This document shows, piece after piece, positions 33,676-64,000 of a DNA stretch of 64,000 bases. Location of the stretch: NCBI RefSeq assembly GCF_004010195.1, contig NC_057718.1, positions 2,831,493-2,895,492 on the forward strand, written 5' to 3'. How positions within the stretch are numbered: position 1 is the stretch's first letter; each line of letters opens with the position of its first letter. This DNA comes from Chiloscyllium plagiosum (Eukaryota). A program made the position numbers and the translations under genes. The notes under the pieces were generated by a model, which had not been told where the DNA came from, did no database searches, and was given only the letters and a program-made list of their open reading frames with translations.

Positions 33676-34020
33676 GTGTTAATCCCCCAGTCCTTCTCCA
33701 GTCTCCAAGCCTGGAATGTGTCACTGAGGGTCACTCTGCCCAGTTACAGTGCACCATGAGGAATGCTTCAGTGACACACACCAATGTTCACTGGGACCGG
33801 GAACAATCAGGGAATAACACGGAGTGGGTTTTAACACATGACGTGAGGAACATCACACAATGGAGCCCAGGATTAACTGAGCGATTCCAATCTACCAGAG
33901 ATCCCTCCAGTAACAGCTTCATTTTGACTATCACAAATGTGCAGCCCAATGACGCTGGGGTCTATTACTGTAAAGTGTGGGAGGATATCAGTGGGAATGG
34001 AACTCGGCTGACTGTAATGG
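33676..34020 (+). CDS. V4: germline-joined VJ-type Ig V-set exon
   Basis: Acceptor ctttccttccaaag| and donor G|GTAAGT; 345 nt. Read by hand the frame is open from GVNPPVLLQSPSLECVTEGHSAQLQC through DAGVYYCKVWEDISGNGTRLTV; the ORF track shows only the part from the internal Met at 33756. Confidence 0.92.
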
Positions 34021-34809
34021 GTAAGTCCTGATTATCTTACAATATCTTACAGCAAACAGTTCCTCATGGATTTATTGGAGAGGAGAATGTGTTACATTCC
34101 TCTGATAGAGAGAGAAAGCAGAGAATTCAATATGAAAATAGAACAGTTACATTGTCTTGTTTTAATCATAGATAGAATGAACTGTTTCACCTCTTGGACC
34201 AATTCCTCAATCGCAACATCTTTACCTTTTTTCTGTTTTTCTACTCCTCCATCTCGTTTGTTCTCAGTGTTGTATTTAACATTGTCCTATCTCTGTCTGG
34301 TTTTGTTTCATTCATTCTTGGAATGTGTCTATCACTGGCTGGGCCAGCTCTTGTTGTTCATCCTGAATGGCCCTTGAGAAGAAATGTCTTCACCCAGAGA
34401 GCGGTGACAATGAAGACTGTGACAATAAAGCTAATGCAATTCAATACTGGCTCCTTATGCACCACTGCTGTCCACTTCCCTTTATCCTCACTGCCACCTC
34501 AATCATGCAAAGATAACCGTGTAAGTTATTAGCCACCTTTCCTGCGTGATGTCACTGGAGTACATTAATTTCTATCGATCACATTTGTGACATTAATCTT
34601 TGTGAAGCATCACACTTACTGGGTTCCTTCATTAGCTTTGGGCTTTATTGTCTATGTACCTCACAGTCTACACAGACTAACAAACCCCCAGGGCAGGTGA
34701 ATATGTCGAGCAAATAGACAGTCTGTGGTTAATAGTGAATTTCTATTTGGCTTCACAGTCACATTCATTCCTTTTCTATATAGAAGCCTGTAGCTGCTCT
34801 CAGTATTCA

Positions 34810-34841
34810 CACAGTGCTTAGTGAATCCTTCAGCAAAAACC
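34810..34841 (+). other. RSS-like motif: CACAGTG, 16-nt spacer, GCAAAAACC
   Basis: Perfect heptamer and 8/9 nonamer, but the spacer is 16 nt rather than 12 or 23. A paralogous copy lies at 57143-57174. Confidence 0.3.
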
Positions 34842-35009
34842 TCTGAAAGAGCAAATTCAGTATAATTCTCTGCTGATCTGCAATTTAATTTGACTCATTG
34901 TACCTCCCGTGATGATTGTAAAGCTATCTTTATCACATAGCTCAAATAATCAGTAAAATGTTTTTTTTTATTGTGGCCTGTTAAAGTGCTGTACAGCTGC
35001 AACATAACC

Positions 35010-41045: not shown

Positions 41046-41385
41046 GTACTGTGTTGAATCCAGCGGTAGTACAGTTTCCAACAGTTCAGAGTGTCAGAGA
41101 GGGTCAGACAGTGAGAATGACAGTGCACGATCAAGAACAGCAAACTGCACGAAGTGATCAGTCATTGGTAACAACAGTGCCCCAGGAAAAGAAAGGACAA
41201 GATGATGACTCATTCTAGAAATAATTCACCAGGAAACTCCTCCAGCTTTCCTGCTTTATTTCAACATTCCAGAGAGCCCTCCTAGAACAGTTTCATTCTG
41301 ACCATTACAAGCGTACAGCCCAGTGACACTGCTGTCTCTACTTGCAATGTGTGGGGCTATACCCATTCAATTACTGTCCCTCAAT
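41046..41385 (+). pseudogene. V5: divergent, disrupted V-domain exon of the same family
   Basis: Acceptor ttttccatttctag|GT. Reads TVLNPAVVQFPTVQSVREGQTVRM, then a +1 frameshift, then QCTIKN...SHW*QQ...SREPS*NSFILTITSVQPSDTAVSTCNVWG. Two stop codons; the GxG strand and splice donor are not recognisable. 3' end approximate. Confidence 0.8.
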
Positions 41386-43143: not shown

Positions 43144-43195
43144 ATGATCAGTGGAACTGTATTTGCTATGACCCTGTCCCTTTGTGTTACATTGG
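43144..43195 (+). CDS. Leader exon L2 (paralogue of L1): MISGTVFAMTLSLCVTL(G)
   Basis: Same 52-nt length and G|GTAAGT donor as L1; flanks about 43010-43240 are homologous to about 12820-13050. Confidence 0.82.
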
Positions 43196-50152: not shown

Positions 50153-52633
50153 TAATGAGTGAAAATTTTTTGAAGTGTGGTCACTCTCATCAGAAAGAGA
50201 GGAACTGATTTAAACACATCAAGGTCACTGGGAGAACAATGCTGCTTTAGAATATAGGAACACAAGAAACAGGAGCAAGTGTAAAGCCGACAGCTTCTCA
50301 AAGCTGCTCCACCATTCAATACAATCCTGGTGGTTAATCCACTTGCCCACCTGCTCCTCATATTCCATAAATTCTTAGAGAGACCAGAGGTCTGTCCATT
50401 CCAACCTGAAATTCTCTCAATGATGGAACATTGTCAATTCTTTTGCAGGGAAAATTCCAAAGATTAACACCCCTTTGAGGAAAGAAATTTCTTCCAAAAA
50501 CATCATCTGTTCACCTGCTTGAGAAGACAGGGTTGCAGTTTGTCATCTCATTGACAGTGACATCTCACTGTACTGCACTGACAGAGCAGCCTGGCTGGTA
50601 TGATCAAATCTGAGGACTTGGCTTTCGATACAAAATCTCCAGTCTCAAAAACAAATGTACTTCCACTGAGCTGACTCTAATGAATGAAGGAGGCTGCTAA
50701 CATGGATCTGGTTCCAGGGAGAAAAATTCCTTTTGCACATTAGCAATAAATATTGTTAGAATGTAAAATAATTCTAAATAAGCCATCATTGTGTCCACAT
50801 TATAGGTCACAGTTTTTAAACATTTTTCTTTTTCCTGTTAGACATTTCAGCATTACAGTTAGCTTAAAGGTATGTTTTCTCTCTGACAAACTCAGGCTAA
50901 CTTTTTAAATTGTTTTTTAATGGCTTGGAGAGGAACTTGCAGATGATGGTGTTCCCACGTGCCTGCTGCCCTTGTCTTTCTTGTCAGAAAATTCATCGGA
51001 TTGTAGGTGCTGTCTGAGGACCTTTGGTGAATTTCTGCAGTGCATCTTATGGAAGGTACATCCTGCTGTTACTGAGGGTTAGTGGTGGAGGGAGTGAATG
51101 TGGTGCCAATCAAGCAACTGCTTTGTCCTGGATAGTGTGAACCTTCTTGAATGTTGTTGGGATGTTTAAGGAACTGTTGTGTTGAAGATCACATGGTCCA
51201 CACTGCAATGGGTGACAGTTCCTCACAATCTCTGCAAATGGACAGTGTTATCGTCTCTGTGCCTGTAACTGTATAACACCCAGCCCCTTGTCTATATTTT
51301 TCATTGAAAATAACATTTTTTTAATTATCAATGTTCAAATGGGATATGAATCTCTCTCTTTTTCACATTAAAAATATTTTGGATTGCCTTTATTTTAAAC
51401 TGTCTCCAAATGCTGTGTGTAATTTATTAAGTTGCAATGAGGCAGGTTTGATCAGACCAACATTAACACTCTCAAGGACAGCTTGAAAAACCCAGGTCAA
51501 AGGGAAGGTCACTCAGTGACCCTGAACAAGCCCCTCATCCAACTGAACGCAGAGCTAAAGGTGTTCTTGGTCCGGCTTTGGGGGGACAATGTCAGTGACT
51601 CCTCAAATTAGCATCTTCACCACTTTTTATCTGAGTGCATCTGGAACGTACTGTGCACATATTAACTGTTTAGAACATCCAACTATTTCAAATGTGCCTC
51701 TTTTACAACACCCTGCCACTGCATTGTATTTGAAGTTCGGTGGGACACAATAAATAAGGTGGACGGGTTCTGCCTATTTCTCCTAGCCCCTAATGGAGGA
51801 TGAGTTGTGAAGTACTTGCTTTGGGAGTTCCCTGTGTCCATTGTCACATGTCCCCTGATGATCCTTTCCCTCTTGTCCCTCTTCCCCAGTCCTGCCCACC
51901 AGCTGGGGCTCCAATCCCAGTTTAACTAAAATGCTTGGGTTCAGGATCAAGCCCGTACCCCATGGTCTCCCTCCCTGGGGCTGAGAAGTCAAATGGTAAA
52001 ATAAAATGAGAATGAGGCAGGAATCTGTCTCAGATGGAAAGAGCATATTTACCCAACAATCAATCCAGAACAGAAGGAGGCCCTTTGGCCCATTGCGATA
52101 ATGCTAGTTCCTCGATCGAGACGTCCAATAAGACCCACTGGTCAATTTCAGAAATCTCCCCTGTTTGTGAAACAGGAAACTGTAGTGAAACTCTACTCAG
52201 TTTTACATTTATTTACAGAGTGAGACAATAAAAGCACCGACCTCTGAACCCAATCCAATCAGTTTCAATACTCACTGTGTTTATGAACCTGTAATCGAGG
52301 CCCTACAAACCCTCACACCCTTTTGGTAGTGTGGTGTCATCCACATCCTTCTGATGGTATATTGACCAGAACTGTACACCATATTCCAAATGTGATCCAA
52401 CCAAAATCCAATCCAGCTGCAACATGAGCTGCAGCTCCATCCAACAGGCAGCTCTCCCCCATTCCCATCTCCCTTCATCCTGGTCAAGGATAAGGAATGG
52501 AAAGACCAAAGATGGTACAGCAGGTATAACAGGGTGGGAGGAAGGAATGGTGACTGACTACCTCCTTCCCCCATCACCCGTCAAAACACTGGAAATAAAG
52601 GAAGGGAAACAGATCTCCCGAATCCAGCAGAAC

Positions 52634-53817: not shown

Positions 53818-54256
53818 GTCTGAGTGCCCAGTAATCTCAGGGTCTGTGAGTGTCTAGCTGCCCAGTAATCTCAGGGTCTGGGAGAGTCTGAGAGTCCAGT
53901 AATCTTAGGGTCTGGGAGGGCGTGTGTACCCAGTAATCTCAGGGTCTGGAAGGGTCCGAGTGCCCAGTAATCTCAGGGTCTGGTAGGGTCTGAGTGCCCA
54001 GTAATTGCAGGGTCTGGGAGTGTCAGAGCATGCAGTAGTCTCAGGATCTGGCAGAGTCTTACTGTCCAGTAAACTCAGGGTCTGGGAGGGTGAGTGCCCA
54101 GTAATCTCAGGGTCTGGGAGGGTCTGAGTGCCCAGTAAACTCAGGGTCTGGGAGGGTCTGAGTGCCCAGTAATCTCAGGGTCTGGTAGGGTCTGAGTGTC
54201 CAATAATCTTAGGGTCTGGTAGGGTCTGAGTGCCCAGTAATCGCAGGGACTGGGAA
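53818..54256. repeat. Minisatellite, ~34-bp unit GAGTGCCCAGTAATCTCAGGGTCTGGGAGGGTCT, about 13 copies
   Basis: Directly visible tandem array. Confidence 0.92.
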
Positions 54257-54391
54257 TATATAGACATGAGACATTTGTTAGTGAGGAAACCTGAATCTGG
54301 GTGAATGTGAAGTTGAAGCTGAGATGAGTCTGTTCGATTGAGCTGTTTTTTGACAGCTCCTTGCTGCAGAGTGAAAGGGTCTTGTTGAACT

Positions 54392-54514
54392 TCAGTTTCT
54401 TGCCCATTTTATAACTGCGTACTCCGAGATCCTTTCAGCAGCTGTCACTGTCGGCTGGCTGCATTCTTGTCGGTGAGAGTGAACCTCAGCATAATGACAT
54501 TCCCCTTCAGCCAG
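54392..54514 (-). CDS. Terminal cytoplasmic exon of a putative inhibitory immune receptor with ITIM/ITSM-like motifs: LAEGECHYAEVHSHRQECSQPTVTAAERISEYAVIKWARN*
   Basis: Minus-strand acceptor ttgtatttgattccag|CTG, phase 0, 40 codons then TGA. Motifs CHYAEV and SEYAVI, with tyrosines 24 residues apart. Upstream exons not identified. Confidence 0.62.
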   Translation of the reverse strand: MAEGECHYAEVHSHRQECSQPTVTAAERISEYAVIKWARN

Positions 54515-54853
54515 CTGGAATCAAATACAAACATCACTCAGTATTTTTCTCACAGACACCAGGAGGTGCTCATTTGTACACAGCAAGATCACAGCAGCAG
54601 CAGTGCTGAGCAGATGGTCTGCTTTGGTGAATGTTGGGGAATGGACACACATCACCCAGGGAGTTCAGCAGAATATCTCTGCTCTCTGCCAAAGTAATGT
54701 CCGGGAATGTATTACATCCATCCAAGGCAGCAGAGAGGATCCAGATTTCACTCCTCGCCCAAAAAAGGGGCAGCTTTTACAGAGCAGTACTTCCTCAGTA
54801 CTGCCCTGAAGGGTCAGCCCAAATTCTGTGCCCAAATCTGTGCACTGAGTCTT

Positions 54854-55860
54854 GAACATAGAACATAGAACATTACAGCGCAGTACAGGCCCTTCGGCCC
54901 TCGATGTTGTGCTGACCTGTCATACCAATGTGAAGCCCATCTAACCTACACTATTCCATGTACGTCCATATGCTTGTCCAATGACGATTTAAATGTACTT
55001 AAAGTTGGCGAATCTGCTACCATTGCAGGCAAAGCATTCCATACCCTTACTACTCTCTGAGTAAAGAAACTACCTCTGACATCTGTCCTATATCTATCAC
55101 CCTTAAATTTAAAGCTATGCCCCCTCATGCTTGGCGTCACCATTCTTGGAAAAAAGCTCTCCTTGTCCACCCTATCTAACCCTCTGATTATCTTATATGT
55201 CTCTATTAAGTCACCTCTCAACCTTCTTCTCTCTAACGAAAACAGCCTCAAGTCCCTCAGCCTTTCCTCGTAAGACCTTCCCTCCATACCAGGCAACATC
55301 CNNNNNNNNNNNNNNNNNNNNNNNNNNNNNNNNNNNNNNNNNNNNNNNNNNNNNNNNNNNNNNNNNNNNNNNNNNNNNNNNNNNNNNNNNNNNNNNNNNN
55401 NNNNNNNNNNNNNNNNTAACCCACCCTTCTACGCCCTCATCCAGGTTGTTTATAAAAATGATGAACAGCAGTGGACCCAACACCGACCCTTGCGGTACAC
55501 CACTAGTAACTGGACTCCAGGATGAACATTTCCCATCAACCACCACCCTCTGTCTTCTTTCAGCAAGCCAATTACTGATCCAAACTGCTATATCTCCCAC
55601 AATCCCATTCCTCCGCATTTTGTACAAAAGCCTTCTGTGGGGAACCTTATCGAACGCCTTGCTGAAATTTATACACCACATTAACTGGTTTACTCTCATC
55701 TACCTGTTTGGTTACCTTCTCAAAGAACTCAATAATTTTGTGATGCACGACCTTCCCTTCACAAAACCGTGCTGACTATCCCTAATCAAATTATTATTTT
55801 CTAGATGATTATAGATCCTATCTCTTATACCCTTTTCCAACACTTTACCAACAACTGAAG
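54854..55860 (-). mobile_element. CR1-type LINE 3' portion with assembly gap 55302-55416
   Basis: [10 protein letters not shown] and PQGSVLGP motifs; GAACATA tail. Confidence 0.88.
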
Positions 55861-56071
55861 TGAATCAACATTTATCTGACCTTAGGTTCTGAGCAAGGTC
55901 ACCGGACCCGAAACTTTAACTCTGATTTCTCTTCACAGATGCTGCCAGACCTGCTGAGCTTTTCCAGCAACTTCTGTTTTTGTTTCGCTTTGAAAAATCT
56001 TGTTTTCTTGAAATAATTAATGACACTGATTTACTCTTACAATTTGTCCTTTCTTTATAACTCTAATCCTA

Positions 56072-56369
56072 GAGGGTCACATTGCCCAATTATGAGGAAC
56101 ACACTATGAGGAACGTTGCAGTGACACACACTGATGTTCACTGGTACTGGGAGCAACCAGGGAATAACACGGAGTGGTTTTTAGCACAAGGTGAGAAAAC
56201 ATCACACAATGGAGCCCAGGATTCACTGAGCGATGTCAGTCTTCCAGAGACTACTCCAATAACAGCTTCATTCTGACCATCACTAACATGCAGCCCAGTG
56301 ACACTGGGGTCTATTACTGTAAAGTGTGGGGAAATATCAGTGGGGATGGAACCCAGCTGACTGTAACAG
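56072..56369 (+). pseudogene. V6: pseudo-exon paralogous to V4
   Basis: Compared with V4, the splice acceptor and first ~17 codons are missing. The B-strand Cys region is replaced by a TATGAGGAAC duplication containing TGA, and there is a frameshift after WFLAQ. The 3' half is intact (DTGVYYCKVWGNISGDGTQLTVT, G|GTAAGT). Confidence 0.85.
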
Positions 56370-57142
56370 GTAAGTCTTTTTTACCTTAGAATAATCTGAT
56401 ACAGTAACCATTTCCACATGGATTTATTGGAGAGGAGAATGTGTTAAATTCCTCTGGTAAAGAGAAAGCAGAGAGCTCGATATAAACATAGAACAGTTAC
56501 CTTCTCTTCTTTTACTCAGAGATAGAATAAATGGTTTCCCCTCTGGAACCATTTCCTCATTCTCAAACTCTCTCACTTCTCTCTGTCTTTCCGTGTCTCC
56601 ACCCAGTTGTTCTCAGTATTTAACACTGTTTAACACAGTATTTAACATTCTCCTGTATGTGTCTGGTTTTGTTTAATTCATTCTTGGGACGTGGCTATCA
56701 CTGGCTGGGCTGGTACTTGTTGTCCATCTTGAATGGCCCTTGAGAAGAAATGTCTTCACCCAGAGAGTGGTGATAATAAATCTAATTCAATTCAATACAA
56801 CTCCCCATGCACCACTGTTATCACCTCTCCATTTATCCTCACTGTCTTTTCAATCAGGCAAAAATAAACAAGTAATTTGTTTAATTACTTTAATTTCTAT
56901 TGATCAGGTTTGTGACATTAATCATTGTCAAGTATCAGTTACTGATTTCCACCAGGAGCGTTATGCCACTCCTAAAGTAAAGCTTGTTGTCCATGTTCTG
57001 CACACAGACTAATAAAGCCCCCAGGACAGGTGAACATATATAGTAAATATACAGTCTGCGGTTAATCATGAACACCTATTTGGCTGCACAGTTACCTTTG
57101 TCCCTCTTCCAGATATAAGCCTGTAGCTGCTTCCAGTCTTCA

Positions 57143-57174
57143 CACAGTGCTGAATGAACCCTTCAGCAAAACTC
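57143..57174 (+). other. RSS-like motif, second copy: CACAGTG, 16-nt spacer, GCAAAACTC
   Basis: Same position relative to V6 as the first copy is to V4; the nonamer is more degenerate. Confidence 0.25.
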
Positions 57175-57278
57175 CAAATAAGCAGCTCCAGCATAATTCT
57201 GCATTGACCTGCATTAGATTTACCTGCATTGTAGTTCCCATGTCAATTGTAAACTATCTTTAGAACATTGCTTACATT

Positions 57279-58320
57279 GCTGTGGTTCTGTTCACCGAGC
57301 TGGAAGTTTTTGTTGCAAACGTTTCATCCCCTGGCTAGGCGACATCATCAGTGCTTGGGAGCCTCCTGCAAAGCGCTTCTTTGATGTTTCCTCCGGTGTT
57401 TATAGTGGTCTGTCCCTGCCGCTTCCGGTTGAAGACAGGAAGGCAGCTAACAATCCGCATACATGAACATCAACTAGCCACGAAACAACATGACCAGCTA
57501 TCCTTANNNNNNNNNNNNNNNNNNNNNNNNNNNNNNNNNNNNNNNNNNNNNNNNNNNNNNNNNNNNNNNNNNNNNNNNNNNNNNNNNNNNNNNNNNNNNN
57601 NNNNNNNNNNNNNNNNNNNNNNNNNNNNNNNNNNNNNNNNNNNNNNNNNNNNNNNNNNNNNNNNNNNNNNNNNNNNNNNNNNNNNNNNNNNNNNNNNNNN
57701 NNNNNNNNNNNNNNNNNNNNNNNNNNNNNNNNNNNNNNNNNNNNNNNNNNNNNNNNNNNNNNNNNNNNNNNNNNNNNNNNNNNNNNNNNNNNNCTCTAGG
57801 AGTTCCCTGGCTGTTCTCTGTCTGGCTTGCCCTATGTTAGTAGTGTTGTCCCAGTCGAATTCATGTTGCTTGTTGTCTGCGTGTGTGGCTACTGAGGATA
57901 GCTGGTCGTGTCGTTTCGTGGCTATCGAAACGACACGACCAGCTATCCTTGGTAGCCACACATGCAGACAACAAGCAACATGAATTCGACTGGGACAACA
58001 CTACTATCATAGGGCAAGCCAGACAGAGAACAGCCAGGGAATTCCTAGAGGCATGGCATTCATCCACAAACTCCATCAACAAACACATCGACCTGGACCC
58101 AATATACCAACCACTACAGCGGACTGACAACCGGAAGCGGCAGGGACAGACCACTATAAACACTGGAGGAAACATCAAAGAAGCGCTTCGCAGGAGGCTC
58201 CCAAGCACTGATGATGTCGCCTAGCCAGGGGACGAAACGTTTGCAACAAAAACTTCCAGCTCGACGAGCAGAACCACAGCAACGAGCACCCGAGCTACAA
58301 ATCTTCGCATAAACTTTGAA
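57279..58320. mobile_element. Penelope-like element of a second family with inverted termini; contains an assembly gap
   Basis: GIY-YIG C-terminal peptide KTGRQLTIRIHEH...HEFDWDNTTIIGQARQRTAREFLEAWHS. About 57279-57430 is the reverse complement of about 58130-58283. Hammerhead core at 58208-58238. Confidence 0.85.
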
Positions 58321-63750: not shown

Positions 63751-64000
63751 TCAGTGATGCCAGATGCTGCTCCCAGCATGTCTTCCTGCACTTGCTATTG
63801 AATCAGGAATGATTCCCTGGTTTGGTGATAATGGCTGTGTGAGGTTTCTCTTTATTTATTGATGGGATGAGGTCTTCACTGGCATGGCCAGTATTTATTG
63901 CCCATCCAGAATTGCCTAGAGAGCAGTTAAGAGCAGATCTGGAATCAGATGTAGGGCAGATCATGTAAAAGATGACAGTTTATAGCCTTAAAGAACATTA

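Follow-up and report, generated by a model that had tools for sequence, protein, structure and literature searches.

An ITIM-bearing terminal exon antisense to a V-gene cluster of Chiloscyllium plagiosum: probable end of an elasmobranch tandem-V receptor gene

Introduction

A 40-codon exon on the minus strand of a V-gene cluster in the shark Chiloscyllium plagiosum is probably the transcribed 3′ end of a convergent gene of an elasmobranch tandem-V receptor family, whose other exons likely lie beyond base 64000 of the window (the whole stretch of 64,000 nucleotides that was analysed) and whose product would damp immune-cell signalling. On our best reading, this minus-strand gene is in no protein record searched and has an unusual tail, and it would itself encode V domains and a transmembrane helix. 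The first-pass annotation had offered two alternatives, the end of an inhibitory receptor gene on the opposite strand or an inverted or displaced tail of the V-gene family itself. These are not exclusive: the tail is the family's own and an opposite-strand gene end is its most likely setting, and only the inversion is not supported. Coordinates are collected in Table 1.

Table 1. Features in and around the tail exon (positions within the window)
Feature	Position	Strand	Basis or remark
Terminal coding exon, 40 codons + TGA, phase 0	54514-54392	-	Sequence, homology and a zero-difference X6 contig
Splice acceptor, AG at 54516-54515, with T-rich tract	54515-54532	-	Sequence; X6 and X10 depth falls to 0 here, shared loose end at 54516
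CHYAEV, proximal Tyr motif, residues 6-11, non-canonical Cys at -2	54482-54499	-	Tyr invariant in relatives
SEYAVI, distal Tyr motif, residues 30-35, canonical ITIM	54410-54427	-	Consensus of PMC11460946 (in part)
Start of putative 3′ UTR	54256-54391	-	Same X6 contig as the exon; first AATAAA downstream at 52213 (candidate)
34-bp tandem array, 12.9 copies, 137 bases after the stop codon	53818-54255	.	
LINE fragment in the putative last intron, spanning the N gap 55302-55416	54855-55855	-	Both halves in the same orientation and order
LOC122552551 (XP_043551182.1): leader, four intact joined-VJ exons (18297, 23708, 28980, 33678), frameshifted fifth V at 41046	12854-41215	+	
Second family leader exon	43144-43195	+	The broken V at 56 kb is the first V after it on this strand
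5′-truncated, frameshifted family V exon	56066-56377	+	Within the putative last intron of the minus-strand gene

Sequence of the tail exon

On the minus strand, the exon is read as a T-rich tract, ...ttccag, 40 sense codons and TGA (54514-54392), with 24 residues from Tyr8 to Tyr32, and the sequence thus agrees with the acceptor, phase-0 40-aa frame and tyrosine spacing first described for it. Phase 0 is supported by two isoforms of one Stegostoma gene (P0021 and P0076), which part exactly at the first Leu of the exon. The ITIM consensus is given as (V/L/I/S)xYxx(I/L/V), along with the role of the motif (PMC11460946, in part), and SEYAVI, already recognized as S-x-Y-x-x-I in the first-pass annotation, matches it, whereas CHYAEV does not. 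The early label 'ITIM/ITSM-like' therefore stands as ITIM for SEYAVI and is dropped as ITSM, since the latter form is T-led.

The motifs were also set against a chance expectation by means of a filter that called for an acceptor with an open phase-0 frame, two YxxL/I/V motifs 15–35 residues apart and one ITIM-type match. This filter found one match in the window, compared with a mean of 2.4 per window in 40 Markov-shuffled windows, 35 of which held at least one. The bare motif pattern does not exceed chance expectation, and because it can arise by chance, the reality of the tail exon rests on homology.

Homology and the receptor family

A search of 5.8 billion proteins with the 40-aa peptide returned five matches among six candidates, at 83–88% identity and with a best E of 2.8e-13, and all five are V-set proteins of Chiloscyllium or Hemiscyllium (bamboo and epaulette sharks): XP_043551196.1, XP_043551185.1 and XP_043552677.1 from C. 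plagiosum, XP_072436318.1 from C. punctatum and XP_060686740.1 from Hemiscyllium. The last exons of these RefSeq models share phase and tyrosine spacing with the window tail; the window copy differs in three private residues and in being joined to an upstream sequence with a YxN motif instead of the usual ...PPVV exon. None of the records in the protein databases searched is identical to the window tail (best 88%). Several C. plagiosum models of the family lie with the window's plus-strand gene on one 105.9-Mb contig. The names under which RefSeq lists the family (pIgR-like, IGSF2/3-like, perlecan-like, SIRP-like or uncharacterized) are misleading. The V exon at 33678, when searched likewise, gave 67 matches among 117 candidates; every match with a named species is from a shark, and a precomputed C1 accession is present in two of the 67. 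Because all five tail matches are among these 67 proteins, the tail and the V exons of the window are of one family.

A profile built from 15 tails extended this picture to more distant relatives. Among 8000 candidates scored, it matched 34 proteins, all of which carry V-set domains, which bears out the earlier suggestion that the tail belongs to the V-gene family itself, and all of which are elasmobranch (sharks or a sawfish), from Chiloscyllium, Hemiscyllium, Stegostoma, Rhincodon, Cetorhinus, Carcharodon, Scyliorhinus, Heterodontus, Heptranchias, Pristiophorus and the sawfish Pristis. Against 1.84 billion representatives, the profile gave 11 matches, six of them family members, including one from the electric ray Narcine and none from bony vertebrates. 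The other five were multi-stretch matches and were dropped; the two that were inspected proved to be repeat proteins without relation to the family. In the 15-row tail alignment, in which identity falls to 34%, neither tyrosine varies, and the spacing of the two is 24 in 37 of 37 relatives, a conservation that is partly circular because the relatives were picked by the tail profile. The residue at position -2 of the proximal motif, whose non-canonical nature in CHYAEV had been pointed out early, is Cys in 15 of the 37 relatives and is hence a subfamily trait (Leu in 16, Met in five and Ile in one); at the same position of the distal motif, Thr (the ITSM type) is found in 22, Ser in 11 and Ala in four.

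The family plan consists of a leader, one to seven joined-VJ domains, an uncharged transmembrane helix and a tyrosine tail, the cytoplasmic position of which is seen in the relatives. A charged residue occurs in only one of 53 distinct transmembrane rows, and a helix is missing from 21 models. Among the family proteins P0002-P0099 no clear adaptor-coupled activating partner was seen, unlike in typical paired-receptor families. Pfam assigned a V-set to seven and a C1-set to none of the seven family proteins scanned, and the number of cysteines per parsed V domain is two in 203 of 245 and four in 15 (isoforms counted separately). Alternative last exons occur in other members, YxN motifs are common in those tail types, and three proteins (P0008, P0022 and P0060) combine the middle exon of one tail type with the last exon of another. 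The AlphaFold model of P0002, which has a mean pLDDT of 49.6 overall and about 70 in the V domain, was used for the V fold only; its 50 best listed fold matches are all antibody, nanobody or TCR V-domain entries (best Z 15.2, rmsd 1.5, 101 aligned), and sequence and fold searches of the PDB gave antibody/TCR-type V domains only, among the matches listed, so that they are neutral towards SIRP, NITR, CD8 and NKp30. The tail profile had a single PDB match, at E 0.6, which was rejected.

Pfam gave nothing for the tail peptide of the window at E 0.1, and one irrelevant match in another scan of the tail. DUF4578 (PF15147), which we take to be the family with human C11orf52, was matched below cut-off by six of the 15 tails (best E 0.0014, and about 7e-4 in full proteins), e.g. 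in P0092 at residues 535-589 and in P0077 at residues 561-609, and the likeness may reflect shared ancestry or convergence of a two-Tyr motif. In the literature searched, most subscription journals and supplements being outside it, no description of a poly-VJ tyrosine-tail family was found, and the family, present in RefSeq under wrong names, is apparently unstudied.

Evidence for transcription and splicing

Contigs from three sequencing runs, X1 (2.7 Gb of contigs), X6 (102 Mb) and X10 (85 Mb), were mapped to 54256-54850. X6 and X10 are two samples of one study, are labelled 'DNA?' without a library record, and come as contigs that give neither strand nor expression level; among the 24 listed runs containing the stretch, none is registered as RNA. 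X1 has depth in 30 of 30 bins of the mapped region, as genomic DNA would. X6 and X10 cover the exon and UTR and have zero depth at the acceptor and across 54536-54775, and this coverage makes it likely that both are RNA. The match of X6 (record 13) comprises 261 letters (54256-54516) with 0 differences and 0 gaps. The loose ends of X6 and X10 share their first 28 letters, counted from the 54516 acceptor, and each of the two contigs has its first letter exactly 30 positions upstream of the exon. Such a start points to a branch at the exon boundary in a 31-mer graph, where an upstream side of 30 letters is one below the 31-letter bar for bridging. We conclude that the tail exon is probably spliced: the reads joining at 54514 that the first-pass annotation proposed to look for have a counterpart in the two runs that show a join exactly at the acceptor, albeit in strandless contigs of probable RNA. 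Downstream of the stop codon, the 34-bp tandem array probably lies inside the 3′ UTR. Taken together, homologues, both of their tyrosines and a spliced-looking join are in line with the original proposal that the exon is the tail of an inhibitory-type receptor.

The 28 loose letters, together with two ambiguous ones, yield by hand translation ten stop-free codons in the frame of the exon, with a Y-N-N-I motif and a final GAG, a typical exon end. These 30 letters would end a coding exon unlike the usual preceding exon of the family. The loose letters have no match in the window at up to three mismatches, and their motif is in none of the family proteins compared. The transmembrane and middle cytoplasmic exons of the family are likewise absent from the window, according to a permissive tblastn with 57 post-V regions and an HMM of 29, which returned just the tail, the V exons and weak leader cross-matches. 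Since the loose letters are absent from the window, the upstream exon should be located past base 64000, 9.5 kb or more from the tail exon, or else within an N gap; the two N gaps nearby are embedded in mobile-element sequence. After its transmembrane helix, the Heterodontus protein P0043 carries a further tail subtype, with a YxN motif and a Glu six residues past the Tyr, which is the spacing of the joined letters (a motif-level lead only, and the closest such parallel).

Two sequence forms of the tail

Three residues of the window tail, Ser13, Glu17 and Cys18, are found in 0 of 42 relatives. X6 carries all three. At exactly these sites, nucleotides 54477, 54465 and 54463, X10 and X1 agree with the family, and the two have in common a one-base deletion in the UTR at 54346. 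The X10 form is joined to the same upstream letters as the X6 form, and the window copy differs from it by three non-synonymous and no synonymous changes. We read the two forms as allelic at one gene, although they may instead come from very close paralogues. At residue 13, the pY+5 position of the first motif, all 42 relatives have Phe or Leu and the window copy has Ser. When the PD-1 ITSM is bound to SHP2, its +1 to +5 residues lie against a hydrophobic patch of the SH2 domains (PMC6994217, in part), and by analogy the window form may bind more weakly. The three private changes could mark a weakened allele or relaxed selection, and three are too few to test this.

Genomic setting and competing explanations

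The window holds six V exons and two leaders of the family, so that the tail exon sits inside a family cluster. The V exons have YYC on the F strand, each carries its J-like GxG end in the same exon, and a search for RSS found two loose RSS-like matches, neither of them at a V boundary, and no canonical RSS beside an exon. The V exons are therefore domains of non-rearranging receptors and not antibody segments, and a rearranging V cluster is rejected. The exons of the plus-strand gene LOC122552551 are 98–100% identical, exon by exon, to P0071 (XP_043551182.1), and no transmembrane exon was found for it. The same frameshifted V closes the C. punctatum models P0010 and P0070, which makes the truncation common to two species; the truncated form is possibly a secreted four-V decoy. 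Further along, the second leader and the broken V exon suggest a decayed plus-strand gene that straddles the tail exon, and 33726-34942 and 56072-57272 match at 75.5%.

The position of the tail exon, flanked on the plus strand by a leader and a broken V exon, with no V, transmembrane or upstream exon of a minus-strand gene seen in the window, weighs against a receptor gene and also fits a rearranged relic. The exon would then be a duplicated or inverted tail, cut from its gene and spliced into a non-coding or pseudogene transcript, with no receptor made. Besides the absence of the usual transmembrane and middle exons from the window, such a displaced relic would account for the flanks (on one side a leader without an intact V after it, on the other a frameshifted V), for three private non-synonymous and zero synonymous changes against the X10 form, and for a joined exon that differs from the usual one. 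However, frame, acceptor, both tyrosines and stop position are all intact, and the same join is used by two sequence forms. The upstream letters, moreover, carry a YxN(I) motif as in other family tails and are stop-free in frame, which calculation predicts for about 60% of random stretches of 10 codons. On balance, we regard a relic as unlikely, although it keeps a real share of the probability.

The unusual join could also mean that an unrelated minus-strand receptor or adaptor gene recruited the inhibitory last exon and so gained a chimeric signalling tail, given that the upstream letters match no family protein compared and nothing in the window. We consider such a capture distinctly improbable, because 34 of 34 proteins with this tail carry the family's V domains and because YxN motifs are common in its other tail types.

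The orientation of the exon had been marked for verification across the N gap at 55302-55416, and the tail of a plus-strand V gene might have been flipped in assembly: N gaps are nearby, and both plus-strand units lack a tail within the window. A flip is not supported. The tail exon and plus-strand V exons are in one gap-free contig (3479-55301), so that the opposite strand of the tail cannot be put down to the gap at 55302, and on either side of that gap the LINE halves have the same strand and the expected order. Even after a flip, the window would be without a transmembrane or middle exon, and P0010 and P0070 of C. punctatum end in the same frameshifted V as the plus-strand gene. An inversion artefact is unlikely, and a flipped plus-strand tail in particular has very little to commend it. 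With two other LINE copies of the window as rulers, about 450 bp would be expected between the halves, compared with 116–129 in the assembly; the halves are possibly a join of two different LINE copies. A third N gap is flanked by 96% inverted repeats at 57277-58282 that resemble a Penelope-type element. Finally, a chance open frame with incidental tyrosine motifs, although motif-only matches average 2.4 per shuffled window, is refuted by homology at E 2.8e-13, with the join exactly at the acceptor also against it, and retains practically no probability.

Predicted mechanism

For the preferred reading, a gene end of the tandem-V family, a mechanism can be outlined. The product would most likely be a type I receptor, with extracellular V domains, an uncharged helix and the tyrosine tail inside. 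If established ITIM biology carries over to the shark, ligand binding would cluster the receptor, a Src-family kinase would phosphorylate the two tail tyrosines, and the phosphorylated pair would engage the tandem SH2 domains of SHP-1 or SHP-2, by which activating phosphates would be removed. The YxN site might add binding of a Grb2/GADS-type adaptor, an assignment of the motif that follows PMC11599192 (in part). As ligand, a self-marker such as an MHC or B7-type IgSF protein would be likeliest, by analogy only.

A wider reading is more tentative, and we would call it possible rather than probable. The family may form an undescribed, megabase-scale shark and ray complex of V-only tandem joined-VJ inhibitory receptors that swaps cytoplasmic exons, and maybe an NK or myeloid 'missing-self' system of its own. 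The tail exon would then end an unannotated, polymorphic member with a Grb2-type YxN and an ITIM pair, whose alleles differ at the pY+5 SH2-contact position.

Significance

Few inhibitory or NK-type receptors are given for cartilaginous fish in the literature consulted, and relatives of the gene that was split by the RAG transposon are being looked for among single-exon VJ genes (PMC12227049, in part). A shark- and ray-wide cluster of V-only joined-VJ, ITIM-tailed receptors would, if true, be a testable candidate for both questions. Taken by itself, the tail exon adds modestly to this, probably as a single further gene of a family that RefSeq already lists; its own value is in hinting at another tail type and at sequence variation in an inhibitory motif.

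Comparison with known receptor systems

By its domain structure, judged on neighbours and relatives, the gene of the tail exon is not a Siglec, SIRP, NITR or LILR, although the inhibitory working of the predicted receptor would resemble that of NITR, SIRP-alpha and Siglec receptors. NITRs have a V domain, or a V and a membrane-proximal cysteine-rich I domain, whereas the shark family has one to seven repeated V domains and no I domain, all its Ig domains parsing as V-set and 203 of 245 having two cysteines. Joined-VJ IgSF genes include CD79, NITR, SIRP, CD8, NKp30 and PRARP (PMC11599192, in part), and NITRs are multigene with KIR-like signalling (PMC3031540, in part). Teleost NITRs and the shark family are thus both multigene joined-VJ IgSF receptors, a likeness of features. 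A lead in the same direction comes from feature matching of a window V domain: once clusters containing C1 are set aside, it scores best (0.93) against one automatically named 'putative immune-type receptor 7'.

With SIRP-alpha, the family shares a joined-VJ domain (PMC11599192, in part) and paired tyrosine motifs. It differs from SIRP in that none of seven relatives has a C1-set. The SIRP ectodomain is V-C1-C1, with the joined-VJ domain of SIRP-alpha at the N terminus, and SIRP-alpha has paired ITIMs for SHP-1/2. CD33-related Siglecs resemble the tail exon in having a two-tyrosine last exon with similar spacing, and their ectodomain combines a sialic-acid-binding V domain that has an F-strand Arg with C2 domains; the shark family instead has a YYC F strand and a J-like GxG, with neither C2 domains nor an F-strand Arg. 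LILR and KIR ectodomains consist of C2-type Ig domains, compared with single-exon joined-VJ domains of V-set only in the shark family. The initial description of the locus as leukocyte-receptor-complex-like accordingly survives as a functional analogy and fails for the architecture, in which joined-VJ V domains stand against the C2 type of LILR and KIR.

Closer to sharks, skate MDIRs are multigene, modular V-type receptors of cartilaginous fish with activating and inhibitory members (PMC3031540, in part), and the shark family is likewise a cartilaginous-fish, multigene, modular V-type system. MDIRs are CD300/TREM/pIgR-like, whereas the domains of the shark family are antigen-receptor-like (50 of the 50 best listed structure matches). 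The V domains of MDIR, CD300 and pIgR have a second disulfide, and the extra Cys pair is mostly missing from the shark family, with four cysteines in 15 of 245 domains. NKp30 is a single-V activating receptor. UrIg and UrIg2, which are single-exon VJ genes in elasmobranchs and carry C1 domains, share with NKp30 and the shark family the possession of non-rearranging single-exon VJ domains in elasmobranchs (PMC12227049 and PMC10751288, both in part). In comparison with these three, the shark family is V-only, multi-gene and tyrosine-tailed.
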